This document shows positions 10,876 through 56,100 of a stretch of 64,000 nucleotides of DNA, one piece after another. Every line of letters begins with the position of its first letter. Position 1 is the stretch's first letter. The stretch is from an uncultured bacterium (lineage in GTDB: Bacteria > Eisenbacteria > RBG-16-71-46 > CAIMUX01 > WJJG01), in the NCBI GenBank assembly GCA_964612295.1, contig CAZTDY010000005.1, positions 1-64,000 of the forward strand, read 5' to 3'. The notes beneath the pieces are model-generated. The model had not been told where the DNA came from. It did not search any database and worked only from the letters and a program-made list of their open reading frames with translations. The position numbers and the translations under genes were made by a program.

Positions 10876-10896
10876 GAGAGACGATAGGATCGACAG

Positions 10897-11538: not shown

Positions 11539-11563
11539 GCCCGTGCGGCCAAGAGCTCGGACC

Positions 11564-32911: not shown

Positions 32912-35900
32912 CTATTCAATAATCAAAAACTTGCGCGATTGCTTGAGATCTTCGGTCTCCAAACGGACGAAGTAGACACCGGGCGAAGCCGGCCATCCAC
33001 CGTCCGTGCGCCCATCCCAGACGAGATCGTGGGGCCCGGCCTGCAGCATCCCGCCGGCCAGCTTGCGCACCCGCCTCCCGGCCACATCGTAGATCTGCAG
33101 ATCTACCCCGCGCATGCGGTCGAGCGTCAGTCGAATGTGGACGCGATCTCCACCCGGATTGGGGGCCGGCCGGGCCAGACTGAGGGACCAGGGGGCCTGC
33201 TCGGACCCGTCTTCTTCTCCAGGATCGACATCCAGCACGTAAGCGCTGTTGATTGTCCCCGGGGTGCCGTAGCCGGTCGAAGCCGCCCAGGACTGGGGGA
33301 GGGCGTTGTCGAATCCGGCCGAGATCAACTCCAGGGTGGGGCCGAGGCCGTCCGGCTCGGACGGCCAGGGCTCGTCATCGTCATAGGTCAGCGAATCGTG
33401 GATCGCTCCTTCTGAATCGAACAGGCGGATCAGCTCGCCGCCGCCGCTGAGCCCGAAGTCGAATTCGCCGCACAGAGGCCCATCGTTGGGGAAGACGGCG
33501 CGGAACAGGGTGCTGTCCTCGCAGAGCACCAGGAACCCTCCCGGGGGGACCTCGACCCCCGGGGGAATCTCGAAGTTGTGCGCGTCCTCCTCATCCTTGA
33601 ACACCCAGCCCTCCAGGTCGGCGGTGACCTCTGCGTTGTTGTACAACTCGATCCAGTCGCCGACGTCGACATCGTCCTCGCTGTTGTAGTTGATCTCGTT
33701 GATCACGACCGCATCGGCCGGAAGCGGCGCGGGTCCGAACAGCGCGCTAAGCGTGTAGTCGTCGTCCGGTTCGATCACGGCCACCGGATCCAGCGGAAGC
33801 CCATCGTCGGACCACTGGAGGAACTGATACCCGGGGGCGGGGATTGCGGACAGCGTCATGGGAACCTGTTTGAAATAGGTCCCCGACCAGAGCTCGCCGA
33901 TGTCGATGGCGGTGAGGGCGATTGTTCCCGACTCGGGCGGGTAGACATCCAGGGTGAGCGTGTACAGCCCGTCCAGGCCGAACTCGTCGATCACGTGCTG
34001 CCGGGCGGGGTCGGTGCGGAGCTCAAGAAACTCGAGCACCTCCTCGGTCTGTTCCTCCCAGATGCCCAACGTAAAACCCCACCGCTCCATGTGGGTGGCG
34101 ATCTCCATCTCGATCCCGGCCATCACGGCCTCGGCCACCGGCGTCGTCACCGATGGGAGGAACGTGCTGTTCATATGATCTGCGTAGCGGTTGATGAATC
34201 TGTATCTGAACGCCTCGTTCTCGAGCAGGCTGCGCATCAAGAAGGTCGACCAGGGCGGATTGGGCCAATCCGGCCCATCCGGCTCGAGGGCGAAGGAGAG
34301 CGTGTTGTGATACGGGCCCACATAGAAACCGATGCCCCAGTCCATATCCTGGAGCAGCCACCGCCATCTTCCGTTCGGCGTGTCGGGACGCCAATAGCGG
34401 ATGTTCCCGCCGGGCCAGTCGTTGTTGGCGAACCAGATGCGGGTCAGGTAGTAGGTGGCGAAGTCGTCCACCTCCATCTGAGACTCGATGTAGGCGAAGT
34501 CCTCGTCGTCCTCCAATCCGTTGGTCTCGATGTAGCCGAGCATCGCGAGGTAGTGTCCGGCGGATCCCTCCATGACGACCTGCTGGTCACGCAGCAGATC
34601 CACGTTGTCGGGATCGACCCCGTAGTTATCGGCCAGGAAACGCGCGTCGAGCCTCTCCCGGATGTTGTGAATGCCCCAGTACACGCCGTTCAAGTAGACG
34701 ACCGAAGGGCTGTAGGCCTGGTAGCCGACTCCGGTGGAGGCCGCCAAGCGCTGCTGGAGCGCATCGCGCAGATGGGCCAGACACCAGTCGTTGCCCGCGT
34801 TGCGAAGGATCAGGCGCGTAAAGGTCTCGATGTCCTTCTCGTCGAAGAACGGGTAGGCCATCTCGGGTGGGCCGTAGTCCTCGTCGGCGATGAGCCGGAG
34901 CGCCTTTTGGGGATAGGTGCGCGTCCAACCCCCATGGATCTTCATGCCCATCTCCTGGCGCAGCCGGGTGATGCCATCGGTTTCAAAGAACTCGACGTGG
35001 ACGGGACGTTCCCAGTCCTCCCAGTAGTTCGCACCGTGATGCGGATACTCAGGGTCGGCGTTCTCCCCCAGGATGTAGATGCCCGTATCGGTGTCCCAGA
35101 GATTGGGGGGATCGGTCGCGAGAGAGAAGACCGGCAGATCGGTGGCTTCGTCGACGATATAGGTTCGCGAGCTGATCGGACTGGGCAGATACCCCGACTC
35201 AAAGGACCGCGCCCGAATCACGGTGGTCGTATCGACAGCGATCGGTGAGCCGTACAGCGCTGAACCCTCGGAGGGCTCGGCCCCATCCAGGGTGTAGTGG
35301 ATTTCTGCCCCGGGCGAGTCAGTCCAGAGCGTGACCAGGACCGGTGCGGCGTAGAAGCCCGGATCAGGTGAGAACTGCACAGCAGGCGCGAAGTCGACTC
35401 CTCCACCGGTGCCGTTGGGGCTCTCCGGGGTGGATTCGCTGAAGTAGTGCCAGGTCTCCGATCCGTCGGGGGCCCGACCTTTGGAGATGTCCTGCGGCAG
35501 AGAGTCGGTGGCCATACTGTCGAACACCGCGCCCGACGCGGCGGAGAGCATGAGCTGCTCGCCCTGGCGGTCGATCTTGAAGTTCGTGTGCAGGTGGGGG
35601 AGGAGAAACTGCACGAAGGGATCGGGACCTGCGCCGCCGGTCGGCTCCGAGCGGCCGACCGAGAGTATCGGGATCATGCTCAGGTCATCACTGCTCAGTG
35701 ACGTATTGTGCACCTGGATCGCCAGGGTGTTGTCGCCAGGGCGCAGAAGTCCGCTCACATCGGGGATCAGGTAGGTCTCAGGCACCCCTCCCCGGTAGAT
35801 TGCGGCCTCATGGGAGATCGTCGCCGGCAGGTCCCAGGGGGGATCACCGGTGTAGTAGATACCCTCGCGGAACAGCTCTTCCCCGTTCAGGTAGACCACG

Positions 35901-36538
35901 AACGCATCGTCGTAGTCGATGTGGAAGCAGAGATGCGTGATGCCCGTCGTGTCGCTGACCACCACCGTGCGGCGCAATGAGGCTGTCAGACAAGGGGGAA
36001 GCAGGGTGGCGTCGTCGCCGTCCCCGAAACCGAATCCGCTGGGCCCCTCCGACCAGGAGGAGTCATCGAACCCGTCCTCCCACCAATCCTCCGGCGGCGC
36101 CGTCGCATTGGCGCGGTAACGCCAGAGGTCGCCCCACATGACAACCGTGTCCCAGTAGGCTTTCTGGGCCAGACGATCCTTGCTCGAGGCGAAGATGAGG
36201 AGGTGCTCACCAGCCCGGATATCCCATTTGGGAAGCTGCCACTTGTAGGGATCGTCCGGATCGTCGGTCAGCCCACAGTTGAAGAGCTCCACCTCCTCGG
36301 GACCCGTGTTGTAGAGCTCGATCCAGTCCGAGGTGTCGCCGTCTTCATCGAGAATGCCCTGGGTGTTCGACGGCAGGTATTCGTTGATGAGGATCTCGCT
36401 CCGTCCCACACCCGGCAGAGCGGCAAGAAGGAAGGCAACGCAAAGCGCTAGCGCGATCATGCGCCCGGTTTTCGCCTGAGACACGTGGGGACCTCCCAGG
36501 ATGTCCTCTGCTGTGACTGCCACAGCAGGTGCACTCAT
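32912..36538 (-). CDS. Giant secreted protein with a lamin-tail domain, a CotH domain, a second lamin-tail domain and a T9SS sorting domain.
   Basis: LTD motifs 'ILINEYLPSN...DWIELYNTG...LFNCGLTDD' and 'VVINEINYNSEDDVDVGDWIELYNN'. CotH core 'RLILRNAGNDWCLAHLRDAL...VVYLNGVYWGIHNIRERLD'. C-terminal tail 'GVYFVRLETEDLKQSRKFLIIE'. Its ATG abuts the TAG stop of the upstream gene. Confidence 0.8.
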   Translation of the reverse strand: MSAPAVAVTAEDILGGPHVSQAKTGRMIALALCVAFLLAALPGVGRSEILINEYLPSNTQGILDEDGDTSDWIELYNTGPEEVELFNCGLTDDPDDPYKWQLPKWDIRAGEHLLIFASSKDRLAQKAYWDTVVMWGDLWRYRANATAPPEDWWEDGFDDSSWSEGPSGFGFGDGDDATLLPPCLTASLRRTVVVSDTTGITHLCFHIDYDDAFVVYLNGEELFREGIYYTGDPPWDLPATISHEAAIYRGGVPETYLIPDVSGLLRPGDNTLAIQVHNTSLSSDDLSMIPILSVGRSEPTGGAGPDPFVQFLLPHLHTNFKIDRQGEQLMLSAASGAVFDSMATDSLPQDISKGRAPDGSETWHYFSESTPESPNGTGGGVDFAPAVQFSPDPGFYAAPVLVTLWTDSPGAEIHYTLDGAEPSEGSALYGSPIAVDTTTVIRARSFESGYLPSPISSRTYIVDEATDLPVFSLATDPPNLWDTDTGIYILGENADPEYPHHGANYWEDWERPVHVEFFETDGITRLRQEMGMKIHGGWTRTYPQKALRLIADEDYGPPEMAYPFFDEKDIETFTRLILRNAGNDWCLAHLRDALQQRLAASTGVGYQAYSPSVVYLNGVYWGIHNIRERLDARFLADNYGVDPDNVDLLRDQQVVMEGSAGHYLAMLGYIETNGLEDDEDFAYIESQMEVDDFATYYLTRIWFANNDWPGGNIRYWRPDTPNGRWRWLLQDMDWGIGFYVGPYHNTLSFALEPDGPDWPNPPWSTFLMRSLLENEAFRYRFINRYADHMNSTFLPSVTTPVAEAVMAGIEMEIATHMERWGFTLGIWEEQTEEVLEFLELRTDPARQHVIDEFGLDGLYTLTLDVYPPESGTIALTAIDIGELWSGTYFKQVPMTLSAIPAPGYQFLQWSDDGLPLDPVAVIEPDDDYTLSALFGPAPLPADAVVINEINYNSEDDVDVGDWIELYNNAEVTADLEGWVFKDEEDAHNFEIPPGVEVPPGGFLVLCEDSTLFRAVFPNDGPLCGEFDFGLSGGGELIRLFDSEGAIHDSLTYDDDEPWPSEPDGLGPTLELISAGFDNALPQSWAASTGYGTPGTINSAYVLDVDPGEEDGSEQAPWSLSLARPAPNPGGDRVHIRLTLDRMRGVDLQIYDVAGRRVRKLAGGMLQAGPHDLVWDGRTDGGWPASPGVYFVRLETEDLKQSRKFLIIE

Positions 36539-39280
36539 CTAACGCAGGTAGAGCAGTCTCACCGTCGGCGGCGAGTGGGAGAGCCCACCCGGCGCAGTAT
36601 TCGAACGCGCGTCTGATATGCGGGCACGGCCCACATAGAGCCCCGGCGGGGCAAACTGCCCGGTCTCGAGACGCCCGTCCCACACCCAGCGGTCGGAGGC
36701 TCGTGACATCTGGACGCGGCGGCACAGGCGTCCGCCGACATCGAAGATCTCGAAGATATCCGCGAGCGTTCCCGCATCCAGGTGGAGCGAGACGCGGTGG
36801 GTGAACGGGTTCGGCCAGGCGTGCAGCGAAGGCGCCGCGGTCCAGATTCCATCGAGCGCGGGGCCGTCGATGCCTTGATCGACGTCATTGAAGGTGCCCG
36901 GTGTCGGATCCGGGTCGAATGCCCAGCGATAGTCGCCGTCGGAGATTCGCGCCCTGGACACGTCGGTCGTCTGGGCACCGAAGAAGACGAGATCGACCAG
37001 GTCGATATCGTCGGGATCTACCGGGTCCCCGGCGTCCGGTTCCTTCTTGTGGAGTGCGATGCGCTCTCCCTCTTTCTTCAGCTTGAAGTTGGTGTGCAAC
37101 GGACCCTGCGTCTGGTCGTTGTCGACCCAGACGATCACATGGCTCAGGCCGGCGATGGTCGTGTCCGGGAACTGCCACTGGATCGAATCGTCCAGCTCGT
37201 CGGTCAGGAAGTAGTCGTTCAGATTGACCGGCGTCGGCCGCGGATTGTAGATCTCCAGCCAATCGTCGAACTGACCGACCTCGTCGCTGAGGGTCGTCTC
37301 GTTGTCCGCCATGAACTCGTTGATGTACAGGTCCTGAGGCGTGACGAGGGCCTCCAGATTCGCCAGCATGAAAGCGTATCGTTCGGTGGCGAACTCGTCG
37401 ATCTCCGCGTCCCCCTCGGTGAAGCGTTCGTTGTCTTCCCAGAACCACTTGCGCACATCCATGATACCGTTGGCCTCGACCACCGCGTGGGCCGTGTCGA
37501 TCTCCGCGTAGATGTCCTCGAGCGGCGCGAGTTCGGTCAGATGCTCGTGAATGATCGACGCGTAGGTGTTCTTCAAGACCGGCTCATTCATGACGCGGTA
37601 GGCGAGCATGTTCCCCGTCGGGCTGGCGCCCTGCGTGAGGGACTGGGTCCAGTAGGTGTTCGGCAGGAACACCGCTCGGATGCCCCAGGACAGGTCCTTG
37701 TCCCAGGGAATCATCTGCCAGAAGTCCGTATCCAGGTCATGACAGAGGTAGAAGTTCTTCACGATCGCATCGCCGTCGTTGACCGTGTTGAGCACGGCGT
37801 AGTAACGCAGGTACTCCTCGATGTCCAAGAAGTCGACGAACGTCTCGTAGAACTCCTCATCGGCGACGTAGTTCAAGGTCTCGATGAAGAGGATCAGATC
37901 CGCCCAGGGCGTCTCCTCGTTGGTTTCCTTGTCGTAGTTCTCATGGTAGTCGAGACTGTCGGGATAGGCCTGGAGACGGTCGAAGCACTTGTAAATGGAA
38001 GCCCCGTTGTCGAGATCGCGCGCCTGCAGGAAACGCGCGTCGACCTGCTCGACGTCACAGTAGACCCCCATGTGCTCCCCGTTCAGCACGATGACCCGCT
38101 CCTGCGCGGTCGGGGCGGGCACGCCGCAGGTGCGGAACAGATCCATCGACAGGGGGGATCGCATGAGGCACGGGTCGCACATCTCGCTATTGCAGTTGAA
38201 CTTGGTGCGGTTCTCGTGGTCGGCGTCGGTCAACTTGATCTTGTAGGACTTCTTGCTCAGCGGCCGGACGACATTCCCGCGGTAGCGGAGGCCGGCATCA
38301 TACAGAGAGTCACCCATCTGCACGGTGCAGCTGTAGTAGATATCCGCGTTGATGTCTTCGTTGAGCATCGCCAGACTGTCCGGATCGATCTCGATGAAAT
38401 AGACCGGGAGCGGCGAATCCTCGTGCAACATCGCCGCGGCGGTGAAGGGTCCGGTCGGATCCGATTCGTTTCCGAAGGCATCGACCGCCGTGATCTGATA
38501 GCCGTACTCGATCAGGGGAACGAGGGTGTTGTCCACGAATCGGCTGACGAGATTGAGTTCGCCGATCTGCTCGACGAACTGCCCGCCCTGCTCCACGCGC
38601 CGGTAGACACGGTAGCCGGCGACATCCTCTTCCTCGTTGTCTTCCCAGTTGAGAATGATCTGCTCGTATCCGCCCAGGATCTCGGTCAGCACCGGAGGGG
38701 CGGGGGCGATCGCGTCCGGCTCGTGATCGAGCACGCTGATCCCGCAGATCTGCGTATGGGGGTGGGGGACGTCATCGAGGTACAGCTGGCCGTCGTTGAC
38801 CGTCACCGCGAACCGGTAGTCCAGCGCGTAGTCCTTCTCGACGTGCGCGTAGACGTCCAGGTCCTCCAGGAGCAGGTTTCCCTCGCTCCACCAATCCATC
38901 GTGTAGTTGTCTGCCCTGTGGCTCCAGGCCTCGCAGAAATTGAGGGTGAGGAGGTAGTCTCCGTTGGGAACGTCGATCCGGTAGTTGCCGGTGGCCGAGT
39001 GGAAGGACTTGTAGAGCCGGGGATCGATGCACCCACCGACCGTCCGCCAGTTGATGTAGTCGCCCGCGAGAAGCCAGCCGTATCCCTGTTCGACCGAGTA
39101 GGGACCGTCGCCGACGTATTCGGTGCCGTCGGTCAGCGTCAGGGGCGAGCCGCCGGAATTGATGTGCAGCTCGAAATCGGCCCAGGCCGGAAACGCCGGC
39201 AGCAGGCAGGCAAGACCGATGACGAAAAGAACCCAACTGCCGGGACGATCAGTGGCGCAAAGATGCGGAACCAGCCTCAT
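36539..39280 (-). CDS. Giant secreted protein with malectin-like carbohydrate-binding, fibronectin-III, CotH, lamin-tail and T9SS sorting domains.
   Basis: 'FELHINSGGSPLTLTDGTEYVGD...YGW' (malectin-like), 'VAGYRVYRR' (FN3), CotH core 'YKIKL...', LTD 'LYINEFMADN...DDWLEIYNP'. C-terminal tail 'GLYVGRARISD'. Signal peptide 'VLFVIGLACLLPAFPAWA'. Confidence 0.8.
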   Translation of the reverse strand: MRLVPHLCATDRPGSWVLFVIGLACLLPAFPAWADFELHINSGGSPLTLTDGTEYVGDGPYSVEQGYGWLLAGDYINWRTVGGCIDPRLYKSFHSATGNYRIDVPNGDYLLTLNFCEAWSHRADNYTMDWWSEGNLLLEDLDVYAHVEKDYALDYRFAVTVNDGQLYLDDVPHPHTQICGISVLDHEPDAIAPAPPVLTEILGGYEQIILNWEDNEEEDVAGYRVYRRVEQGGQFVEQIGELNLVSRFVDNTLVPLIEYGYQITAVDAFGNESDPTGPFTAAAMLHEDSPLPVYFIEIDPDSLAMLNEDINADIYYSCTVQMGDSLYDAGLRYRGNVVRPLSKKSYKIKLTDADHENRTKFNCNSEMCDPCLMRSPLSMDLFRTCGVPAPTAQERVIVLNGEHMGVYCDVEQVDARFLQARDLDNGASIYKCFDRLQAYPDSLDYHENYDKETNEETPWADLILFIETLNYVADEEFYETFVDFLDIEEYLRYYAVLNTVNDGDAIVKNFYLCHDLDTDFWQMIPWDKDLSWGIRAVFLPNTYWTQSLTQGASPTGNMLAYRVMNEPVLKNTYASIIHEHLTELAPLEDIYAEIDTAHAVVEANGIMDVRKWFWEDNERFTEGDAEIDEFATERYAFMLANLEALVTPQDLYINEFMADNETTLSDEVGQFDDWLEIYNPRPTPVNLNDYFLTDELDDSIQWQFPDTTIAGLSHVIVWVDNDQTQGPLHTNFKLKKEGERIALHKKEPDAGDPVDPDDIDLVDLVFFGAQTTDVSRARISDGDYRWAFDPDPTPGTFNDVDQGIDGPALDGIWTAAPSLHAWPNPFTHRVSLHLDAGTLADIFEIFDVGGRLCRRVQMSRASDRWVWDGRLETGQFAPPGLYVGRARISDARSNTAPGGLSHSPPTVRLLYLR

Positions 39281-39537
39281 GTTCTCACCTACGCGACGGT
39301 TGTTCTCCAGGATCTTGTCTAGTCCACATACATTATAGCACGTTGGGGGGGGTCTCACAATGTGCCCCCGGGCACGGAAGCTGTTGTACCGCAAGTGGAT
39401 ACAGGTGTCAGCAGTGTGGGAGGCGGGGGCGGAATAGGCCTAAGACGGCGAACACCGCCAGCAGGGTCGCCGGCGGCGCTCGCAAAAGTCAGTTCTGCGT
39501 GGGCGTGGTCCGGAAGCAGCCCTATCGCCCGGGGCGG

Positions 39538-40449
39538 CTATTTGTCTTCAGGGGTCTGCCGCTTGATTTGGTCGCCCGTACGAGGGGTGCCCCCAAGTAC
39601 CGACTGGTCCTGAGGTTGGCCGGTTCTGACCTCCCTGTCCCTCTCTTCCTTGGCCTTTGCACGCCTGTTCTTGGCCCGTGCCCGGCGCATGTCCGCGGTC
39701 GCCTCCTGCGCCGCCTCGGCCGCCGCTGCAACTACGGGGTCCTCAGGGATGTCCTTGGTGAGCGTGATGTTCTTCCCGCCGAAATCGACGATGCTGTTAT
39801 CCGGCGAGACGATCAGCCGCGTATTGGCCAGGTGCTGGCCTCGCGTGCCGGAGCGATTGAGAATCGTCTCGGCGATCAGGACGGGCGCCTCGTCTTTGCG
39901 CGTGACATGGCCTCCCAGAACCACATCGACCTCCGGCAGGGACGAGGTGTACTGCTCCATCGACTTGGTATCGACATGGGCGAGGAGAACGAGGATATCC
40001 ACCTGAGGCCGAACCTCCGGGATCAGCTGCTGTAGCGTGCCCATCGGCGGAAGGAGACGCAGCCGATTGCCGACCTTGTTCATCACGCTCGTGTTCATCT
40101 GGTTTTCGCTGATCGCGCTCAGGAATCCGACCGTGACGCCCCCGCGCTCCATGATCAAGTATTGCTGACCGATGGGCTGCCATATGCCGTCCTTCATCTG
40201 CTCGACGTTGGACACCACCAGCGGCAAGGGAGCAACCTGCTGCAGGCTGTCGATCATGTCGAAGAACTCGAACTCGAGCTCCCCGTAGGTCACGGCGTCG
40301 TATCTGAGCCGGGCCATCTCCATCCAGCTGGCGATGCTTTCCGGGTAGCTGTTCTTCCAGTTGCGGTGAACGAAGTCACCACCATCGGCCAGGAACATGA
40401 TTCCGCCCTGCTTCCGCAGAGTATCGACGAGGGCGGCCCGCCGGGCCAT
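39538..40449 (-). CDS. Calcineurin-like metallophosphoesterase / 5'-nucleotidase N-domain-like protein. It may be the C-terminal part of a UGA-recoded lipoprotein (see 40468..40629).
   Basis: 'GGIMFLADGGDF' (motif II), 'YDAVTYGELEF' (GNHE-like) and 'VVLGGH'. Aligns with the UshA region 'GLAAQKTLVDGIRKE..GGSVLLLSGGD'. Confidence 0.65.
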   Translation of the reverse strand: MARRAALVDTLRKQGGIMFLADGGDFVHRNWKNSYPESIASWMEMARLRYDAVTYGELEFEFFDMIDSLQQVAPLPLVVSNVEQMKDGIWQPIGQQYLIMERGGVTVGFLSAISENQMNTSVMNKVGNRLRLLPPMGTLQQLIPEVRPQVDILVLLAHVDTKSMEQYTSSLPEVDVVLGGHVTRKDEAPVLIAETILNRSGTRGQHLANTRLIVSPDNSIVDFGGKNITLTKDIPEDPVVAAAAEAAQEATADMRRARAKNRRAKAKEERDREVRTGQPQDQSVLGGTPRTGDQIKRQTPEDK

Positions 40450-40467
40450 CCCACCCTTCTTGCCGTG

Positions 40468-40629
40468 TCACCCACAGGGGACAATGTCGGCGTTGAAGCA
40501 GCTCTGCGATATGATTCGGACTTCCACATTCGTGGGTCGTTTGCCGCTGGGACCGCCCGTGAGGGCGCAGCCCTGGAGCAGGGCGAGGGTCGCGACACCA
40601 GCAACGAGGAAGCTCAAGCCTCTTTTCAT
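40468..40629 (-). CDS. Lipoprotein signal peptide plus roughly 30 aa, ending at an in-frame TGA directly upstream of, and in frame with, the 39538..40449 ORF.
   Basis: 'MKRGLSFLVAGVATLALLQGC...VEVRIISQSCFNADIVPCG-TGA-HGKKGGMARRA'. SD GGAGA. Confidence 0.45.
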   Translation of the reverse strand: MKRGLSFLVAGVATLALLQGCALTGGPSGKRPTNVEVRIISQSCFNADIVPCG

Positions 40630-40777
40630 GGGTCTGTCTCCGCAGTTACTTGGTACTCACACGTCCTAGGATAAGGAGTCTGCCGAGGCCCGCCGTCCAC
40701 ACCGGCCACCCGAGGCAGATCGCAGGAGTATACCCCAGAGCGGGGCAAACATTCCAGCGGGCTGCACCCCGACCCCT

Positions 40778-41638
40778 CTACTTCTTCTCCGCCCGATCCG
40801 GCTTGTAGAGTCTGTCCGGAATCGGGAGTTGGCCCTCGTCCGCCGCAGCGGCCTTTCGGGCATTTCGTTTTCTGTCCTTGGCCTCCTTGCTGCTGGCCTG
40901 CGCCTGGAGGGCGGCCTGGGCGATGACCGGGTCCTCGGGCATATCGACGGTGAGCGTGATGTTCTTCCCGCCGAATTCGCAGATCTCGTCGTCGGGCGAG
41001 ATGATCAGCCGCGTGCTGGAGATCGCGCGTCCCCGCGTTCCCGCCCGATTGAGGATCGCACTGTCCATCTGCGCCGGGCCCAGGTCCGTGATCGGCATGT
41101 GTCCGCCGACGACGACATCCACGTCCTCCATGCTGTCGGCGTACTCCATCATGGTTCCGGGGTCCAGATAGGCCAGCAAGACCACCACCTCGCATTGGTC
41201 CCGGAGTTTTCGGGAAACGAGGCGGGTTGTCTCGTGAGGATCGAGAATCCTCACCTTGTTCTCGTTCCTGCGACGGACCGTGTTGGAGATCACGATGTCA
41301 TTGACGACGCTCATGACGCCCACCCGAATTCCGTTGCGCTCTACAATTCGATAGGGCTCCCCGAGCGGAACCCATTGGCCATCGACTGACTGCTCCAGGT
41401 TCGTGCAGACCAAGGGAAGGTCCACATTCGACCGCAAGCTATCGAGCTCATCCCACTGGTTGAGCTCCTGGAATCCGAAGGTAACGGCGTCATAACCAAG
41501 CCGCGCCATCTCGGTCCAGGTGGCTTTCGTCTCCGCCAGGTTGCGTTTGTTCTTGTGCGAGAAGCTGCCCGCATCAACTAAGACGAACGGCACCTCCGCC
41601 TTCCTGAGGTCGTCGACAAAGCTGGCCCGCCGGGCCAA
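40778..41638 (-). CDS. Paralogous metallophosphoesterase / 5'-nucleotidase-like protein; tandem duplicate of 39538..40449.
   Basis: 'PFVLVDAGSFSH', 'YDAVTFGFQELNQW' and 'VVVGGHM'. Collinear with the upstream paralog. Confidence 0.65.
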   Translation of the reverse strand: MARRASFVDDLRKAEVPFVLVDAGSFSHKNKRNLAETKATWTEMARLGYDAVTFGFQELNQWDELDSLRSNVDLPLVCTNLEQSVDGQWVPLGEPYRIVERNGIRVGVMSVVNDIVISNTVRRRNENKVRILDPHETTRLVSRKLRDQCEVVVLLAYLDPGTMMEYADSMEDVDVVVGGHMPITDLGPAQMDSAILNRAGTRGRAISSTRLIISPDDEICEFGGKNITLTVDMPEDPVIAQAALQAQASSKEAKDRKRNARKAAAADEGQLPIPDRLYKPDRAEKK

Positions 41639-41656
41639 CCCACCCTCTTTGTCATG

Positions 41657-41808
41657 TCACCCGCAGGGGACGACTTCGCCGTGGAAGCAGCTTTGCGCGA
41701 GGATCCGCACCTCGACATTGGTGGGCCGCTTGGCGGATCTCCACCCGCCGCAGCCCTGGAGCAGCGCAAATGTCGCCAGCAGGGACACCATCCATAGGAA
41801 GCGGTGCA
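41657..41808 (-). CDS. Lipoprotein signal peptide segment ending at an in-frame TGA, at the same conserved position as in the paralog.
   Basis: 'MHRFLWMVSLLATFALLQGC...VEVRILAQSCFHGEVVPCG-TGA-HDKEGGLARRA'. SD GAGGAGAG. Confidence 0.45.
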
Positions 41809-42016
41809 TAACTCTCCTCAAGGGCTCGATGGAATCGAGCAGGGACCATGGCCGGAGTTGTCTACATTCTAGTAATACTATTCGGCCAGGCCGGTTCCCG
41901 TCCCCGGCATTTCTCCCCGGATCGCCATCGGAGGATCCAGGGCGAAATCCGTCTAAGGTGCTTGATAGTAATCACTTGTGGTGATAGCCGGCCGGGCGCC
42001 TATTTGCCGCCCTCGC

Positions 42017-43084
42017 CTAGCGGATGAGACGCAACAGGACGCTCTCGGACCTCCCGGCGGTGTCCAGACGGACGAGATACACGCCTGTGGGTAGGAGATG
42101 CCCCGTCCCGTCGCGCCCGTCCCAGGTGATCAGGTGCGCGCCGGGGGGGCGGTACCCCTGATCGAGCTCCAGCAAGCGGCGTCCTGAAAGGTCGAACAGC
42201 CCTGCGCGAACCCTGCCAGCCACCGGCACCTGGTAGCGGATGGTCGCGGTCCCGAGAACCGGATTCGGCGAGACCGGGCCCACCACCAGAGTCGGTCGGT
42301 TCGAGTCGACGGGATGCGCGTCCGTGCCCGCCATCGGATCGGGGATCCAGGTCGCTCCCCCGGTCGAGTGATAGGCAGGATAGGGATTCGTGAACGCGAT
42401 CCACTCGCCTCCCACCCCCTGAGCGAGGTCATAGGCGAAGCAGGGAATGCCATCATCTCCTCGCGTGGCGGTCAGGTACGCCGTGTTGTTGCCCACGGCC
42501 ATTCCGCGCCCCTGTCCATTGCTGGCCGGGATCGTATCGACGAGTTTGATCATCTCGTCGCTGCTCAGGTCGATCGAGTAGAGGCCGGAGTCGCCATACT
42601 CCGTGTACCCGTAGAGGAGGCCGTCGGCGGCGTTGTAGTCGAGCGCGAAGAAACGGAATCCTTCTGTGGTGTAGACATCCAGCGCGAGCACCGCGTTGCC
42701 CGTGGCCGGATCGATCTCGTAGATCCCTTTCGGGGTGGCGTAGTTCGAAAAGCCCCAGAGCGTATTGTCTCCGTAGGCCAGGGCATGGACATCGACACTG
42801 ATGGTCGACAGGTACTGCGGATATGTTTCGGGCGTTGCGGTGAAGAGCTCGGTCGTGAATGCGCCATTACAGAGGTAGAGAAGGCCATCGGGCGTGGCGG
42901 CCGCACCGCTCACATCGAAGGCGTAGTGGTTGTCATACGAGACGTTCGGGAAGCCCGCCAAGTCCGTGGAACGGGTGATCGGTTCGGACCCTTCCAGGCC
43001 CACGAAGAGCTGCTGCGCCTGCCCCGGTGCGCCATGCAGAAGGAGAATCGACAGCAGTACCCAGCCCACAGTTGCTACTCGCAT
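42017..43084 (-). CDS. Secreted hypothetical protein with a T9SS C-terminal sorting domain.
   Basis: Signal peptide 'VGWVLLSILLLHGAPGQAQ'. C-terminal tail 'GVYLVRLDTAGRSESVLLRLIR'. Its start overlaps the upstream stop (TGATG). Confidence 0.7.
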   Translation of the reverse strand: MRVATVGWVLLSILLLHGAPGQAQQLFVGLEGSEPITRSTDLAGFPNVSYDNHYAFDVSGAAATPDGLLYLCNGAFTTELFTATPETYPQYLSTISVDVHALAYGDNTLWGFSNYATPKGIYEIDPATGNAVLALDVYTTEGFRFFALDYNAADGLLYGYTEYGDSGLYSIDLSSDEMIKLVDTIPASNGQGRGMAVGNNTAYLTATRGDDGIPCFAYDLAQGVGGEWIAFTNPYPAYHSTGGATWIPDPMAGTDAHPVDSNRPTLVVGPVSPNPVLGTATIRYQVPVAGRVRAGLFDLSGRRLLELDQGYRPPGAHLITWDGRDGTGHLLPTGVYLVRLDTAGRSESVLLRLIR

Positions 43085-44169
43085 CACACGTCCTCCAGTT
43101 CATAGGTGCGTTGTCCCAAGCCGATCGTTTCCCCGTGGCGAAGTTGCACTTCCCAGTCTATCTCAGGCCAGGCCTCCTTGAATACGTCCGTCTCCGCCGC
43201 CTGGTTGACCAGGTCGACGCACGCCTGGTCGAGCGCCACCGGATCGTGGGAGAAGGCGATGCCGATGTCCGGCACCAGCTGCCCCCGGTTGGCCCCCATG
43301 CAGTCGCAGTGTTTCGTCACCCGGTTGATGAGATTGATGAAGCCCGCGCGCCGGCCGGTGGCCTTCAAGACGGCCAGGGCGTACTCGGCGGTGGCCTCCA
43401 TGACCTGGGTGGATTCCCGGGACCAGTCGATCCCGATCGCGCCGGTGGGGCAGACCGCGATGCACTCGGCGCACCCGATGCAGGTCTGGCCATCGATCTG
43501 AGCCGGGGCATCGGTCAGGGTGATCGCTTCCACGGGGCACACCGAGCCGCACAGGTAGCATCGGACGCACTTCTGCTCACCGACGATCGGACTGACCGCC
43601 GAGTGTTGGTCCAGCTTTCCAGCCCGCGACGCCAGGCCCATGCCCAGATTCTTGATGGCGCCCCCGTATCCCTCGACCATGTGGCCGGTGAGATGGGCCA
43701 CCCCGATGAGATAATCGAGATCGCGTACGACGGGAGCGAGATGCGCGGTCGTCACCCGTTTGCAGTCGATCTCGACCGCGAACGAATCCCGTCCGGAGAT
43801 GCCGTCGCTCAGAATGATGGGAGCCTCGACCGTCTCGTGGGTGAATCCATGCTCGCGGGCGACCTCCAGGTGTTCGACCGCGTTCATCCGCCGGCCGCGA
43901 TAGAGCGTGTTCGTCTCGGTGACGAAGGGATGATGCCCGTGATTGCGGTGGAGCCTGACGAGGCGCCGGATCAGGTGGGCGGGAGGGTGACCTTCATTGC
44001 CGGCCTCCCCGAAGGTGAGCTTGATCGCGACCAGCGCCTTCGCCGGCAGGTCCCCCCAGGAGGCGCCCTCGAGCAAGGCGGCAAAGCGCTTTTCGACGTG
44101 GGCCGGATCACTCCAATCATCGATTCGGGCCAGGAGCACCGTAGGGTCCATCTGTTGCACTTCCTCCAT
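43084..44169 (-). CDS. DUF362-domain protein with a 2x[4Fe-4S] ferredoxin insert.
   Basis: 'CVRCYLCGSVCPVEAI' and 'CIGCAECIAVCPTGAI'. An alternative start at 44151 has a better SD. Confidence 0.7.
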   Translation of the reverse strand: MEEVQQMDPTVLLARIDDWSDPAHVEKRFAALLEGASWGDLPAKALVAIKLTFGEAGNEGHPPAHLIRRLVRLHRNHGHHPFVTETNTLYRGRRMNAVEHLEVAREHGFTHETVEAPIILSDGISGRDSFAVEIDCKRVTTAHLAPVVRDLDYLIGVAHLTGHMVEGYGGAIKNLGMGLASRAGKLDQHSAVSPIVGEQKCVRCYLCGSVCPVEAITLTDAPAQIDGQTCIGCAECIAVCPTGAIGIDWSRESTQVMEATAEYALAVLKATGRRAGFINLINRVTKHCDCMGANRGQLVPDIGIAFSHDPVALDQACVDLVNQAAETDVFKEAWPEIDWEVQLRHGETIGLGQRTYELEDV

Positions 44170-46416: not shown

Positions 46417-47844
46417 CTACTCGTCCCAGTTGAAATCCACGGACTCTTCTTCGGCCTTACCGGCGTCCGGATCGAGGTCCTCCTCCTCGCGCGTCGCGGG
46501 AGCGGTCTCCTCAGTTTCTTCCGGCTCCGGATGCGGGCCGCCGATGTCCCGCTCGGCGATGTAGACCGGTTCGAGCGGATAGCTTTCACCCGGTTTCAGG
46601 ATGTGCGGCGTGATCAGGACGATGATTTCGCTCTTCTGCACATGGAGTTCGGAGCGACCGAACAGACCGCCCACGATCGGGATGTTCATCAGCCCCGGGA
46701 TTCCCTTGCGAACAGTCTCCTCGCGTTCCCGGATGAGTCCTCCGATGAAGATCGTCTCGCCGTCGCGAACTAGGACGTTGCTGGTCACCTGGGTTGTCGT
46801 TTTCGAGGGCAGGCCCTCCTGGACGACACCGTCGGAGAGCTCCGGGTGGATCCGCATCTGCACGAATCCATCGCTCGTGATGAGGGGCGTGATCGAGAGC
46901 TGAGCGCCGGTATCCAAGAACTGAACCGACTCGATCACCGTGTTGTCCACGATCGTGCGCACGGTGAATCCCAGCTGTCCGCCGATCTGGACCATGGCCG
47001 CCATGCCGTCGATCGCCATGACCCGGGGAGAGGCCAGGGTGTTCAGCTCATCGACATCCTCGAGAGCCTCGATGACCGAGGTGAAGTCCCCTTTGCCCCA
47101 GGTGAGGAACATGCCTTCCATCCCGGCGTCGGGATGGTTGGCGAATCCCTGGTCAACGAGTTGGCCGTTGCCGCCCTCCCGTGAGAAGAGGAGTGACCAG
47201 TCGATCCCGACGGTGACATCGCGGGATAGGTGCGCCTCCAGAATCTGCGCTTCGATGAACACCTGCCGGGGGGCCTGGTCCAGGCTCTTGATCATCAGCT
47301 CGAGGCGATCGAGAACGTGGGGAAGATCCTCCACGACCACCGATCGCAGCGGCATGTAGCTGGTGACCTTGCCGATGGGGGAGAGGTATTCCTCAGTCAA
47401 GGTCTTGATCAGATCCGAACTCGCGTACTCGAGCCGGAACGTGCGCATACTGCGACCGACGTCGACGGTCGGATCGCTGTCACCCGCGCTGTGCACGTAG
47501 TAGATGCTGCCCTTGTGGACGACATCGAAGCCGGCCATCACCACGATGGCTCTGAGCGCCTCCTCGAAGGGGACCGCGTGGAGGTCAACGCTGACCGGAC
47601 CGTGGACAACGCCCTCACACACGATGTTGATGTCGCGGGACCGCGAGAGCATGGCGAGGACCTCTTTGACATCGACGTCCTGCACCGAGATGGTGACCGG
47701 AGCATGGACGACCGGCTGCTCGTCGGAGGCCAGCGCACCCCCCACCGCACCGAGGAAGATCAGGAGGAGCCCGATCCCCGCAAGCGCAGCGAGGCGGCGT
47801 ATCCTCCCGCCCATGGGTCTGATGTCAGTTTGGGATCTCATCAT
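46417..47844 (-). CDS. Secretin of the GspD/PilQ family.
   Basis: N-terminal N0/N1-like domains and secretin core 'VLVRDGETIFIGGLIRERE...IPGLMNIPIVGGLFG'. Has a signal peptide. Confidence 0.85.
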   Translation of the reverse strand: MMRSQTDIRPMGGRIRRLAALAGIGLLLIFLGAVGGALASDEQPVVHAPVTISVQDVDVKEVLAMLSRSRDINIVCEGVVHGPVSVDLHAVPFEEALRAIVVMAGFDVVHKGSIYYVHSAGDSDPTVDVGRSMRTFRLEYASSDLIKTLTEEYLSPIGKVTSYMPLRSVVVEDLPHVLDRLELMIKSLDQAPRQVFIEAQILEAHLSRDVTVGIDWSLLFSREGGNGQLVDQGFANHPDAGMEGMFLTWGKGDFTSVIEALEDVDELNTLASPRVMAIDGMAAMVQIGGQLGFTVRTIVDNTVIESVQFLDTGAQLSITPLITSDGFVQMRIHPELSDGVVQEGLPSKTTTQVTSNVLVRDGETIFIGGLIREREETVRKGIPGLMNIPIVGGLFGRSELHVQKSEIIVLITPHILKPGESYPLEPVYIAERDIGGPHPEPEETEETAPATREEEDLDPDAGKAEEESVDFNWDE

Positions 47845-48359
47845 GGACTCCCTTTCATCTCGAGTCGGTGAACATGTCCCTTGCGCACCAGGAGCACGAA
47901 ATCGGATTCGATCTTCACGACGCGGTATCCGGACACGTCCTCGCCTTCGCTGACAATCTGCCCCCCGAGACGGGCCTGACGGTATTCACCGTCGAGTAAG
48001 ATGCCGGTGAGCGCGGGTAGGGGTGGCGGCTTAGGTCTGGCCGGTTTCACAGGCTTGACAACCTTGGGTTTCGGTTTGGGTTTGGGCGCGAAGAGGGATC
48101 GATCCAGCTGAGGACGTCCGTCGAGCGCGGTCTCGGATGAACCCTCCTGGCCACCGTCGGGGCCGGCCTCCATACGCGCGATAAGGGAGCGATAGGCCTC
48201 CGCGGCCTCCGCCACGGGGTCTTTGTAGCCTGCGCGCTCGGGGGTGGTGGGGAAGGCCACCAGAGAGACGAGCACCACAACCACCGAGGCCGCGACGATC
48301 ACCGGCTTCTCCGGCAGCCGGGGCCACCGCCGTTTGGGTGACGAGTTCTCAGGCATCAC
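47841..48359 (-). CDS. PilP/GspC-like pilot protein with a Pro/Lys-rich linker and a C-terminal beta-domain.
   Basis: TM segment, 'PKPKPKPKVVKPVKPARPKPPP', and 'LTGILLDGEYRQARLGGQIVSEGEDVSGYRVVKIE'. Confidence 0.55.
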   Translation of the reverse strand: MMPENSSPKRRWPRLPEKPVIVAASVVVVLVSLVAFPTTPERAGYKDPVAEAAEAYRSLIARMEAGPDGGQEGSSETALDGRPQLDRSLFAPKPKPKPKVVKPVKPARPKPPPLPALTGILLDGEYRQARLGGQIVSEGEDVSGYRVVKIESDFVLLVRKGHVHRLEMKGSP

Positions 48360-48901
48360 TTTCCCTCCTCGTCGGGGGCGAAGTACAACGCGATGGTGAG
48401 ATCCGCCGCGCTATAGGCCTGTTCGGGCGATCCGACGATGCTCAGCTGCTCCACGCGCGAGAGCTGGTCGGCCTGCTCCAGCGCGATCAGGAAATCGTAG
48501 ATGCCATCGAAGCGGCCGACGATTCTGGCGGTGACGGTCAGACGGCGATAGAGCGGCTGAAGTTCGGGCTCACCCGGCGACAGTCGCTCGACGCGCACCC
48601 CGGTCTGGGCCGCGATATCCCCCAACCATTCCAGGAAGAGATCCAGGTTGACGTTGCGGGGCAGGAGGGCGTGGCTTTTCTCGACATCATGCGAAATGCG
48701 TCCGATCTCGGCGTCGAGCCTGTCCAGGTTGCCTTCGGCGTCCGAGAGAATCTGCACGGCCTCCTGGAACGCCGACAGGTCGCCGCGCGCGGCATAGATC
48801 GGGCGGACCGCATGGTGGATGATCACGAGCGCAAACCCGGTTACGACCACGGCGATTGCGATGCGGCCGAAGGTGTCCAGGCGCCGGGGATCAGTCTTCA
48901 C
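48356..48901 (-). CDS. PilO/GspM-like inner-membrane assembly protein.
   Basis: Single TM, coiled-coil, then a ferredoxin-like fold region. Operon position after the PilN-like gene. Confidence 0.55.
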   Translation of the reverse strand: MKTDPRRLDTFGRIAIAVVVTGFALVIIHHAVRPIYAARGDLSAFQEAVQILSDAEGNLDRLDAEIGRISHDVEKSHALLPRNVNLDLFLEWLGDIAAQTGVRVERLSPGEPELQPLYRRLTVTARIVGRFDGIYDFLIALEQADQLSRVEQLSIVGSPEQAYSAADLTIALYFAPDEEGK

Positions 48902-49496
48902 TGGGCCCTCCCATCAGCAGGCACTGGAGCTGAAACTCCACTTCGGAAGCCTGCGCCTCTCGCGGTGCAATGTCCCGTGCAGACAGAAGAACCACTGTAT
49001 GGACCCCCTCCGCCCGGGAGAGGCTGCTGATAATCTCCGCCACCTGGGCATGCCCGGGCGCGCGGCCATGGAGGCGCAGGGAAGGTTGCGTTCTTGCTTC
49101 GCCCTTTCCGCTTTGAATCGGCGTGCTACGGGACAGAGACAAATGAGTGAGATAGCTGTCCGGGGTCAGCGCCGATCCAAGAATCTCCAGCACCATCGCA
49201 GCCGGCAGGGGATCGCGAATCGCCCGGACGGCCTCTTGGCGGTGCGTCAGACGATCGCGTTCCTGGATGAGCAGCTGCGCATACTGCAGGCGCTGCTGCA
49301 GGTGAGTGTAACGGCTGCTGACCGCCTCCACCTCGGCATCCCGGCCCGCCGCAACCCGGGCGACTCCCGCATAGAGCAGGGTCAGGACGACCGCGGTCCC
49401 GCCCACGAGGACACTCCAACGACGGATACGGTCTTGCGTCCGCCTGCGCCCCGGTACCTCACTCGGTATGAGATTGATTCTATTCATCAGTCTCAT
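48891..49496 (-). CDS. PilN/GspL-C-like protein.
   Basis: N-terminal 'INLIP' motif. TM segment 'WSVLVGGTAVVLTLLYAGV'. Confidence 0.7.
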   Translation of the reverse strand: MRLMNRINLIPSEVPGRRRTQDRIRRWSVLVGGTAVVLTLLYAGVARVAAGRDAEVEAVSSRYTHLQQRLQYAQLLIQERDRLTHRQEAVRAIRDPLPAAMVLEILGSALTPDSYLTHLSLSRSTPIQSGKGEARTQPSLRLHGRAPGHAQVAEIISSLSRAEGVHTVVLLSARDIAPREAQASEVEFQLQCLLMGGPSED

Positions 49497-50583
49497 CCTC
49501 GGGCCAGAGGGCGCTACACGCCGCGGTGGCGTAGCAGGTCGTCCCTTGGGGGTTGTCCCAGGCCGGGAGCCTGCAGCCCTCGCTCGGACCGCGCACCGGG
49601 ATCCCCAACCTCTCCTCGATCACCTGGCGGAGTTCACCCTGAGAGGCCAACACTCCCACCAATAGGCAAGACGCCGGCGAGCGATGCTGCAAGTAAGAGT
49701 CGCAATAGCTCAGACAACTTGCCGCCTCATGGGCCAGCTCGAGGAAGGGCGAACTCAAGATCGCGCTCAAGGTGTCGTGCAGTGTCTCGCGCCCCTGGGG
49801 GTCCTCCAGCAGCGGGTCCGTGCCCGTTCCACAAGAGGTGAGTTCCGCCAGCAGCCGCCGAGCTTGGGTGTCATCGAGTTCCAGTTCCGCCTGGATGTGA
49901 AGAACGAGACTCTGGAGACTCCAGGGAAGCACGCGTTCGAGAAGGACGAACCCCCCTTGGACCACGGCGATGGAGGTGGCGTTCTCCCCGGAGTTGATGA
50001 CGAGATGTCGCGTATTCGGGTCCCCCTTCACCAGGGGGGCAATCACGCACCCGGGCGTGGTCAGGCGTTCGGTGCGCAGCCCGGTGCTGTCGATTCGTTT
50101 CAGGACCGTCTCGGCCAGGTTACGCGGGGCAGAGAAGATGAGAACCGCGCTGGCCTCATCGCCCGGGCGTTTGACGGAGTCGGGAAGAACACTGTAGTCG
50201 AGAACCGATTCCTCCAGCGGATAGCTGAGGCGTTCTCTCGCGTTCAGAATGACCATGCTCTCGAGGGTGTCACTGCCCCGCGGCGTGAAGCTGACCGGGA
50301 AGATGTCCACGGCGGGGGAGGAGAGCACGCAGATTGCGCGTCCCGTTCCCAGCCCGGCCTGGCGCAACGAGGTGCGCGCTGTCTTGTCGAGGGCGGTCGG
50401 GATCTCATCCCCGGTGGCATGTAGCTCAGTGAACTCGAATCTCCAGCAGCCCTTGTCCTCACCCAGCCATCGCGCGAACTTCAGCGAGTTCTCGCCGGCC
50501 TCGATCCCGACCAGACTCTGGGCCGGACGAGACAGCGAGCGCAGCAACTTCGGCGTGCGCAGCTTAGGAAGAGACATCGACAT
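49480..50583 (-). CDS. PilM/GspL-like actin-fold ATPase-like cytoplasmic platform protein.
   Basis: Actin-like fold signature 'VGIEAGENSLKFA'. SD AGGGAGGG. Confidence 0.7.
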   Translation of the reverse strand: MSMSLPKLRTPKLLRSLSRPAQSLVGIEAGENSLKFARWLGEDKGCWRFEFTELHATGDEIPTALDKTARTSLRQAGLGTGRAICVLSSPAVDIFPVSFTPRGSDTLESMVILNARERLSYPLEESVLDYSVLPDSVKRPGDEASAVLIFSAPRNLAETVLKRIDSTGLRTERLTTPGCVIAPLVKGDPNTRHLVINSGENATSIAVVQGGFVLLERVLPWSLQSLVLHIQAELELDDTQARRLLAELTSCGTGTDPLLEDPQGRETLHDTLSAILSSPFLELAHEAASCLSYCDSYLQHRSPASCLLVGVLASQGELRQVIEERLGIPVRGPSEGCRLPAWDNPQGTTCYATAACSALWPEDETDE

Positions 50584-54077: not shown

Positions 54078-54222
54078 CTGCGATGAAACCCTAGCGCCCC
54101 CCCAACAAGACCGATCGCCCAGCGATCAGGCAGGGTCGGCGAGAATCGGAGGCCGTAGCCACCCAGCTCTCGCCGACCCGCTGCCGAAGTCGCCGCCTAT
54201 GGATTGGGTCAACGCCGCTTAG

Positions 54223-54741: not shown

Positions 54742-54810
54742 GGTTTTGTCTCCCTTCATGACTCTCCGTCAATGTGCACGCGACTCTGATGCCACGTGCT
54801 GACCCAACCT

Positions 54811-55977: not shown

Positions 55978-56100
55978 GCCTTGTGCCCTCGGGGAAGCCC
56001 AATACCACTACATGGTCCTCTATCGGACCTGTTCGTGGGCCCCTTGAGATGTCCCGGGGAAACGATGTATGGCTGATATCAGGCTATGGGGGCGGGTAGG

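Follow-up and report, generated by a model that had tools for sequence, protein, structure and literature searches.

A tandem pair of probable UshA-like selenoprotein genes in Candidatus Eisenbacteria

Since their cataloguing in 2008, UshA-like selenoproteins have lacked any functional hypothesis. The group 'COG0737, UshA-like, CxU' was among the major selenoprotein families in the GOS (Global Ocean Sampling) metagenome, with 76 selenocysteine (Sec) and 92 Cys sequences, and its authors remarked that it was not an obvious thiol oxidoreductase (PMC2398784, Zhang & Gladyshev 2008). Two reviews list the curated family NF041198 (UshA_like_PCGU) and a second family, NF049981. Here we describe two tandem paralogous genes of this kind on the minus strand, at 39538-40629 (copy 1) and 40778-41809 (copy 2), in a 64-kb stretch of contig CAZTDY010000005.1 (hereafter the window, meaning the whole stretch analysed). 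Each gene is interrupted by an in-frame UGA, and comparison with homologues makes it very probable that both are single read-through selenoprotein genes in which this UGA is read as Sec.

A preliminary description of the window had already proposed selenoproteins, and the conserved TGA column, the Cys homologues and the fixed hairpin codons reported below support that proposal. Its further suggestion that a Sec-containing 5'-nucleotidase-like family would be new does not stand, as such proteins are already present in PMC2398784, NF041198 and NF049981. Our literature searches found no experimental study of any family member, no paper on selenocysteine in Eisenbacteria, and nothing that joins nucleotidase, multihaem cytochrome and selenocysteine.

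The gene pair and its in-frame UGA codons

Both copies share a common build, consisting of a signal peptide with a lipobox, the segment SQSCFxxxxVPCG, the in-frame TGA, the segment H(G/D)K.GG(M/L)ARRA and a degenerate 5'-nucleotidase-type domain. In copy 1 a GGAGA lies nine bases 5' of the start codon, ATG 40629, and the gene reads MKRGLSFLVAGVATLALLQGC..., RPTNVEVRIISQSCFNADIVPCG (junction segment SQSCFNADIVPCG), TGA at 40470-40468, and then HGKKGGMARRAALVDTLRK... (HGKKGGMARRA), ending at a TAG at 39540-39538. Copy 2 starts at ATG 41809, just 3' of a GAGGAG Shine-Dalgarno sequence, and reads MHRFLWMVSLLATFALLQGC...RPTNVEVRILAQSCFHGEVVPCG (LLQGC, then AQSCFHGEVVPCG), TGA at 41659-41657, and then HDKEGGLARRASFVDDLRK... 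(HDKEGGLARRAS), ending with TAG at 40780-40778. The pair had been described as paralogues with a TGA at the same position; rereading both on the minus strand bore this out, and further copies share the column. The palindrome positions given at that time are also correct, whereas the end coordinate 41808 was one base short of the ATG of copy 2. The features of the pair are as follows.

39538..40629, minus strand: copy 1, the 'D-type' paralogue, a read-through gene of 363 codons with the predicted Sec as codon 54
40567..40629, minus strand: copy 1 signal peptide, pattern-based, with a lipobox-like L-Q-G-C (LLQGC) and Cys21
40474..40500, minus strand: copy 1 putative active-site segment Cys44...Pro51-Cys52-Gly53, with Cys44 in the motif-I Asp column (alignment with canonical HTNDxH proteins)
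40468..40470, minus strand: copy 1 in-frame UGA, codon 54; Cys in distant homologues
40778..41809, minus strand: copy 2, the 'S-type' paralogue (DAGSF, with Ser for the motif-II Asp), a read-through gene of 343 codons with the predicted Sec as codon 51
41750..41809, minus strand: copy 2 signal peptide, pattern-based, with an L-Q-G-C end and Cys20
41657..41659, minus strand: copy 2 in-frame UGA, codon 51, with TGA in the same column across the family

The two copies are about 46-50% identical as proteins and 81% identical as DNA around the junction, and both end in a low-complexity tail rich in Lys, Arg and Glu. A hydrophobic stretch followed by x-[GAS]-C occurs in 19 of 22 family members; this is a pattern only, and the Gln at -2 is atypical for the lipobox [LVI][ASTVI][GAS]C. 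The products are likely exported, lipid-anchored lipoproteins.

A genome scan with one genome per species identified 13 loci, and every locus that carries an organism name belongs to a Candidatus Eisenbacteria metagenome-assembled genome (MAG). These loci contain 20 copies, with a second tandem copy in 7 of the 13; together with the two window genes they give 22 copies, and 15 more from 12 metagenome loci bring the number to 37. PCG-TGA-H is kept in all 22 copies of the first set and in 15/15 metagenome copies (37/37), among which the 51 nt from the TGA onward occur as 29 distinct sequences. Residues are conserved on both sides of the codon (RPTNVEVRILSQSCFQGEVVPCG before it and HGKKGGLARRAAF after it), with the consensus RPTNVEVR(I/L)(I/L)SQSCFQGE(V/I)(V/E)PCG upstream and HGKKGGLARRAAF(V/I)D downstream. 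Pro at -3 and Cys at -2 are present in 22/22 copies and Cys at -10 in 19/22. Upstream of the TGA, codons change while the amino acids are held; the Arg at -16 is encoded by five codons, and the Cys at -2 by TGT in 10 copies and TGC in 12. This synonymous variation around constant residues indicates that the upstream segment is translated sequence under purifying selection.

In copy 2 the profile matches extend across the UGA; with NF041198 and canonical nucleotidases taken together they span residues 28-300, that of NF041198 being 30-300. Encoded 5' of the UGA are both the motif-I column and the hydrophobic stretch corresponding to the canonical LTILHTND, in agreement with the earlier observation that the downstream open reading frames (ORFs) alone have neither signal peptide nor motif I. 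The 46 close database homologues are all 217-310 amino acids (aa) long and all start after the TGA, and no uninterrupted Cys form of this short clade was found in 5.8 billion proteins.

Uninterrupted homologues do exist at greater distance. We identified about 20 full-length proteins, 21-25% identical, that have Cys at the Sec column (PCGCH or PCGCS). They read ...LSTTDVKGKTSPCG-C-H(V/T/I)PKGGLARRA..., with spacing identical to the ...LSQSCFQGEVVPCG-U-HGKKGGLARRA... of the UGA-containing genes. Such pairing of Cys and Sec at one column is, in sequence comparisons, the standard signature of a selenoprotein. The preliminary description had named an alignment of homologues at the TGA column as a check, and it came out in favour of translation, with TGA in every clade copy, Cys in the distant homologues and residues conserved across the junction. 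TGA otherwise serves as an ordinary stop, as had been noted; it closes about 19 of the 44 coding-like ORFs of the window, some with full-length Pfam matches, and is the true stop of five genes of the same family. Taken together, the comparative data show the UGA of both genes to be translated.

Two side observations concern the Cys forms. In loci L040 (3489-7035) and L043 (114-3209), short Cys-form homologues lie directly 3' of an OmpR-type response regulator, accompanied in L040 by a histidine kinase. L043 contains two tandem Cys-form paralogues.

A SECIS-like hairpin within the coding sequence

The published model of the bacterial Sec insertion sequence (bSECIS) calls for a loop of 3-9 nt, a G in the first two loop positions, a spacing of 16-37 nt and a minimum free energy <= -7.5 kcal/mol (PMC13188914). 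Both window genes carry, directly after the UGA, a hairpin that falls within all four of these limits.

40431..40452, minus strand: copy 1 SECIS-like hairpin, GGG-A(bulge)-UGGCCC [GGC] GGGCCG-CCC, -14.6 kcal/mol, within codons G59-A65 (GGMARRA)
41619..41641, minus strand: copy 2 SECIS-like hairpin, GGGUUGGCCC [GGC] GGGCCAGCUU, -15.4 kcal/mol

The palindrome GGCCCGGCGGGCC, at plus-strand positions 40435-40447 and 41624-41636, is the top of a longer stem that extends from nt +19 to +40 after the U of UGA. It comprises a 3-nt loop starting with G[G/U], a 6-bp upper stem and 3 further pairs, with 25 nt from the UGA to the loop; the SECIS-compatible spacing claimed earlier is therefore inside the published range. 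The two copies differ at one pair, U23-A37 in copy 2 as against U23.G37 in copy 1. Across the family the consensus is GGG-(Y/A bulge)-UGGCCC-[G G/U C/A]-GGGCC(G/A)-CC(U/C).

The codons that form this hairpin are nearly invariant. Codons +6 to +12 (GGG YTG GCC CGG CGG GCC GCC) have a synonymous entropy of about 0, compared with 1.7-2.2 bits for Arg codons elsewhere in the same genes. Variation is limited to loop nt 30/31 or to changes that preserve a pair (G-C to G.U, U.G to U-A), and 99.6% of pair cells are kept over the 29 distinct sequences. Eight Cys-form genes that encode the same GGLARRA vary in their codons (GCC/GCG/TCG, CGC/CGG, CGC/CGT/CGG and GCG/GCC). Codon +8 is GCC in 30/30 Sec forms and in 2/8 Cys forms (Fisher p 1e-5, a value that is indicative only because the sequences are related and phylogeny was ignored). 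In the long-form Sec genes of loci L041, L044 and L046, the hairpin reads CUCGCCC-GGC-GGGCGAG, with pair 24-36 as C-G instead of G-C, and the adjacent Cys paralogues differ at these sites. On this comparison, the hairpin bases are under selection that is not seen in the Cys forms.

The case illustrates that, in GC-rich DNA where neither folding energy nor covariation is informative, a SECIS can be supported by the fixation of synonymous sites in Sec relative to Cys paralogues. As a separate observation, one Cys-form gene (L042:2133-2180, with TGC) carries the exact Sec-form hairpin GGCCCGGCGGGCC and may represent a recent replacement of Sec by Cys.

The eroded metal site, proposed mechanism and rival explanations

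By homology, the fold of the products is that of the metallophosphoesterase domain of 5'-nucleotidases. Copy 1 matches Pfam Metallophos (PF00149) at 22.7 bits (threshold 21.5), and copy 2 has no Pfam match. The NCBIfam models UshA, CpdB and SoxB also match the window proteins, SoxB at E = 1e-13. A search of PDB with a profile of 19 read-through proteins retrieved 5'-nucleotidases at E = 1e-26 to 1e-11 (best 7.5e-27), namely the snake venom enzyme, T. thermophilus 2z1a, CD73 and UshA, and weakly SoxB. No Pfam match to the C-terminal substrate-binding domain PF02872 was obtained for either window protein. The metal-binding motifs compare as follows.

Motif I: canonical LTILHTND-M-H; copy 1 VRIISQSC-F-N; copy 2 VRILAQSC-F-H
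Motif II: canonical LLDSGD; copy 1 LADGGD; copy 2 LVDAGS
Motif III: canonical LGNHDF; copy 1 YGELEF; copy 2 FGFQEL
Motif IV: canonical LSHLG; copy 1 LLAHVD; copy 2 LLAYLD
Motif V: canonical GGHTH; copy 1 GGHVT; copy 2 GGHMP

The canonical ligand set DxH, GDxx, GNH(D/E), H and GHxH is thus incomplete in both window proteins. Where canonical enzymes have the motif-I Asp, the window proteins have the Cys of SQSC, ten residues N-terminal to Sec, and the motif-I His column is Gln in most family members. Alignment with canonical relatives places PCG-U-H between the motif-I position and GGxARRA. The TGA had been placed next to motif I in a C-x-U arrangement; the C-x-U arrangement is there, whereas motif I itself corresponds to the upstream Cys and not to PCGU. 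The whole clade lacks the Asn and the catalytic His of GNHE (GELE in copy 1, GFQE in copy 2). The motif-II Asp and the motif-IV His are kept in copy 1 and replaced by Ser and Tyr in copy 2, and GGH is kept in both. In a short Cys-form clade nearly all metal ligands are gone and PCGCH is retained.

We therefore propose the following mechanism, which as a whole (Sec read-through, a rebuilt metal site and a redox role) we consider likely. The ribosome would meet the UGA at codon 54 of copy 1 or codon 51 of copy 2, and the hairpin 15-37 nt further 3', formed by the GG(L/M)ARRA codons, would recruit SelB with Sec-tRNA(Sec), so that Sec is inserted and translation goes on; decoding by SelB and tRNA(Sec) is what we infer here. 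The products would be exported and probably anchored by lipid, and their scaffold would be the metallophosphoesterase domain that forms the N-terminal part of UshA/CD73/SoxB superfamily proteins. Their two-metal site would be largely rebuilt, with the motif-I Asp changed to Cys, a Pro-Cys-Gly-Sec-His segment present, and the Asn and His of GNHE gone. The resulting Cys-x-Sec centre might carry out periplasmic redox chemistry or handle sulfur, selenium or thiophilic metals rather than hydrolyse phosphoesters, and the short forms might receive electrons from a separate partner.

Because the metal ligands are eroded and relatives are fused to a tetrahaem cytochrome, we favour, tentatively and at somewhat less than even confidence, a non-phosphatase role in redox chemistry or in sulfur, selenium or thiophilic-metal handling at the Cys44/Cys52/Sec54/His55 centre. 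The cytochrome fusion, the eroded ligands beside an invariant PCG(C/U)H, and the motif-I Cys of the clade together suggest a protein other than a nucleotidase and offer a testable redox hypothesis. A broader extension is possible, and we put it forward with more reserve. The whole PCG(C/U)H superfamily might be a 5'-nucleotidase/SoxB scaffold turned into a non-phosphatase redox or chalcogen enzyme, with Cys...Cys-x-Sec-His at the former two-metal site. Its long forms would be wired to haem and the Eisenbacteria short forms would use another partner; the short clade would be obligately Sec-dependent and the D/S pair heteromeric.

Several observations weigh against this proposal. Compared with shuffled GC-rich sequence, the hairpins show no advantage in folding energy (z = +0.9 and -1.1), and no compensatory double change was found at any base pair within the short clade, the sole case lying between clades. 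The codons for A-R-R-A (GCN-CGN-CGN-GCN) are near-palindromic, so that Cys forms also fold into weaker or different hairpins; for this reason we take codon fixation as the main evidence for a SECIS, and a description of the Cys forms as lacking a hairpin was dropped. Rfam gave no match, either in the window at gathering thresholds or in 40350-41750 at E <= 10. Neither the 64-kb window nor about 200 kb of sequence from the other loci yielded genes for the Sec machinery (selA, selB, selD, tRNA-Sec): ARAGORN detected no tRNA, and hence no tRNA-Sec, in the window or 16 loci, and the precomputed Pfam annotation, which covers most of the window, includes no SelA, SelB or SelD. We thus infer the organism's capacity to use Sec rather than show it. 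A six-frame scan of the window for other in-frame TGAs with coding-like flanks recovered only these two genes and antisense artefacts, so no second selenoprotein family in the window corroborates Sec use. The functional proposal draws only on the loss of metal ligands and on relatives, 21-25% identical, in which the domain is part of a fusion; no cytochrome domain is present in the window proteins themselves, and no periplasmic redox partner is evident nearby.

The alternative that survives best concerns function. The products could still be metal-dependent phosphoesterases, for example nucleotidases or SoxB-like hydrolases, with Cys and Sec simply taking the place of Asp and His in binding a softer metal. 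We consider this unlikely. Copy 1 does retain its motif-II Asp along with two His, that of motif IV (LLAH) and that of motif V (GGH), and exceeds the Pfam Metallophos threshold by a small margin; the SoxB match given above also speaks for this reading. Against this stand the loss of the GNHE Asn and catalytic His throughout the clade, the additional loss of the motif-II Asp and motif-IV His in copy 2, the nearly ligand-free short Cys-form clade that nonetheless keeps PCGCH, the missing PF02872 domain and the fusion of relatives to multihaem cytochromes.

Read-through without Sec is much less probable still. The UGA might be decoded by a Trp, Cys or Gly tRNA acting as near-cognate or suppressor, or UGA might be reassigned in the lineage, the hairpin then merely stimulating read-through. 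UGA followed by C is a leaky context, the hairpin shows little covariation, and the Sec machinery was not seen in the sequence examined (window and loci). Reassignment is difficult to reconcile with the use of TGA as the terminator of about 19 of 44 window ORFs and of five family genes. Moreover, the homologue column is Cys in a C-x-C/U motif, a classic Sec signature, both the loop sequence and the spacing of the hairpin agree with the bSECIS model, and selenoprotein status is accepted for homologues that carry this CxU motif in organisms possessing the Sec machinery.

Two-gene operons, raised as the mundane alternative in the preliminary description, are now effectively excluded, and we give them slightly less weight again. 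The TGA would end a lipoprotein-like peptide of 50-53 aa, and the downstream ORF would start at an ATG or TTG with GAGGGUGGG as its Shine-Dalgarno sequence. The ENA, JGI and NCBI gene callers annotate the genes in this way, splitting every clade member into an ORF of 50-60 aa and a truncated 'hypothetical protein' or '5'-nucleotidase', and copy 1 indeed has an ATG seven codons past the TGA. However, this would-be restart codon (+7) is CTG in 14 of the 22 copies, TTG in 7 and ATG in window copy 1 only, and GGGUGGG abuts it with no spacer. The six codons between the TGA and the putative start (HGKKGG) are conserved as protein, and the downstream ORF alone would lack the signal peptide and the segment with the motif-I column. 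The profile matches cross the TGA, and homologues have Cys there in one uninterrupted ORF. Pseudogenes or assembly errors, for which nothing speaks beyond the stop codon itself, can be dismissed, since independent assemblies and samples share this codon, which occurs in 37 copies (29 distinct sequences) with purifying selection on both sides.

Genomic context and comparison with known systems

In a neighbour-joining tree, copy 1 groups with the copies of loci L001-L003 that have the motif-II Asp (GGDF), and copy 2 groups with the GGSF copies of L001-L003 and that of L012. The tandem pair is therefore an old duplication whose order has been kept and which is found again in other Eisenbacteria, and the D-type and S-type proteins may act together.

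One conserved neighbour encodes a DUF362 protein with two 4Fe-4S motifs. A second type of neighbour, found directly 3' of the Sec gene(s) in 7 loci and absent from the window, encodes a protein of about 190-265 aa that has several long hydrophobic stretches, no Pfam match and is probably a membrane protein.

43084..44151, minus strand: DUF362 protein with two 4Fe-4S motifs (Pfam DUF362 and Fer4), the same-strand upstream neighbour in 13/14 loci
L001:4415-5209, L004:4897-5616, L007:4064-4633, L008:3918-4499, L010:3872-4528 and L013:3920-4534: hydrophobic downstream protein

In the window, a gene with a FlgD_ig tail (42017-43087) lies between the DUF362 gene and the selenoprotein pair, and a divergent GATase_4 gene lies beyond the DUF362 gene. 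The DUF362/Fe-S protein has no signal peptide, which makes a direct partnership with a periplasmic protein doubtful; we set it aside as redox partner and regard the association as conserved synteny only. No cytochrome genes were found near the short forms at the loci examined.

Directly 3' of the pair, at 32912-39394 on the minus strand, are genes for two very large secreted proteins, of 951 and 1208 aa when measured as longest ORFs. Malectin, CotH and LTD domains are found in them, and in the larger one C-terminal sorting domains of the FlgD_ig and Por_Secre_tail types as well. Elsewhere in the window, Pfam matches suggest an RNA-repair, ADP-ribose or defence island at 1208-16390. Its genes encode a ClpB-like AAA protein, NADAR, Band_7, RlaP, a PolyA_pol/CCA-type nucleotidyltransferase, RNase_T, microbial PARG, RNA_ligase and NAGPA, as well as a 1157-aa AAA protein with a weak match to peptide-chain-release factors (PCRF). 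A type IV pilus cluster at 46417-57813 includes the secretin PilQ, a PilO-like protein, a T2SSE ATPase, a T2SSF platform protein and N_methyl pilins, and is flanked by HD-GYP, STAS and response-regulator genes. Contigs of several samples, among them ENA SUTE22-1 scaffolds (67 and 116 kb) and a 50-kb JGI contig, contain stretches identical to parts of the window; the organism is therefore a recurrent population of those metagenomes.

The window hairpins resemble the bacterial SECIS (bSECISearch model; archetype E. coli fdhF) in lying within the coding sequence right after the UGA, in the small G[G/U] loop and the 25-nt spacing, and in a bulged pyrimidine or A beneath a 6-bp upper stem. In sequence, we take the window hairpin to be unrelated to that of fdhF apart from UGA-CAC-GGC.

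With the canonical 5'-nucleotidases (E. coli UshA, T. thermophilus 2z1a and human CD73) and SoxB, the window proteins share export and a homologous N-terminal domain that shows the GGxARRA segment, the LLxDxGD strand and GGH. They differ in having no C-terminal substrate-binding domain, in the changes of DxH to C-F-(N/Q/H) and of GNHE to G-E-x-E, and in the added Sec segment.

The features of the broad UshA-like CxU family (PMC2398784), that is COG0737-type homology, a conserved UGA in C-x-U, Cys homologues and a SECIS hairpin, are all present in the window genes. The GOS family likewise has Sec in C-x-U and Cys homologues, and was defined from short marine reads without architecture or taxonomy being given (PMC2398784). 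The window clade, in contrast, stems from MAGs of Candidatus Eisenbacteria and from related metagenome contigs; its members are short, lipobox-bearing and often tandem, and no Cys form of it was found. NF049981, 'UshA-like (seleno)protein family 2', is also a short UshA-like selenoprotein family (262 positions), but the window proteins reach only 36.1 and 35.1 bits against its cut-off of 140, and their motif is CxU and not CxxU.

NF041198, 'UshA_like_PCGU, UshA-like (seleno)protein', is the best NCBIfam model for both window proteins, at 87.4 bits for copy 1 and 103.4 for copy 2 (cut-off 275). It is also the best model for all 19 full-length family members tested, none of which comes near the cut-off; the best E-value among them, 1.4e-38 at 132.8 bits, belongs to a Cys form (P0048). 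The window proteins contain the P-C-G-U motif and align only to positions 20-297 of this 519-position model. Relatives of 475 aa, some labelled Eisenbacteria, score 236-273 bits, and a profile search identified C-terminal Cytochrome_C554/C7 domains with four CxxCH motifs in them; the cytochrome part corresponds to profile positions 351-518, and residues 279-440 of one such protein (P0128), the CxxCH-bearing region, align to the C-terminal part of the model. No CxxCH motif is present in either window protein, and neither belongs to the curated equivalog. Judged from these alignments, the curated NF041198 family is a PCG(U/C)H domain fused to a tetrahaem cytochrome c554-like domain.

In each of the loci L041 (4470-7428), L044 (2467-5428) and L046 (2467-5428), two of which are from Eisenbacteria MAGs, a 475-aa Cys paralogue comes after a long-form Sec gene. 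Annotation splits the latter into an ORF of 52-53 aa and a 411-aa 'Cytochrome_C554' ORF, and in two of these loci PALP/CBS and Cys_Met_Meta_PP (transsulfuration-type) genes come next.

Reading the UGA as Sec restores a complete exported protein and implies Sec decoding in Candidatus Eisenbacteria. The window clade is an undescribed short variant of the UshA-like selenoprotein family already known from bioinformatics, without the cytochrome and so far limited to Eisenbacteria and to the Sec form. It shares with the NF041198 long form the degenerate 5'-nucleotidase-type domain and a P-C-G-U/C-H motif with (P)KGGLARRA after it, and with the Eisenbacteria long Sec form at L041:4470-5915 a UGA in the same column and a hairpin at the same place. 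The NF041198 long forms and Cys forms examined, at 21-25% identity, keep the motif-I Asp (STTD), where the window clade has Cys (SQSC).

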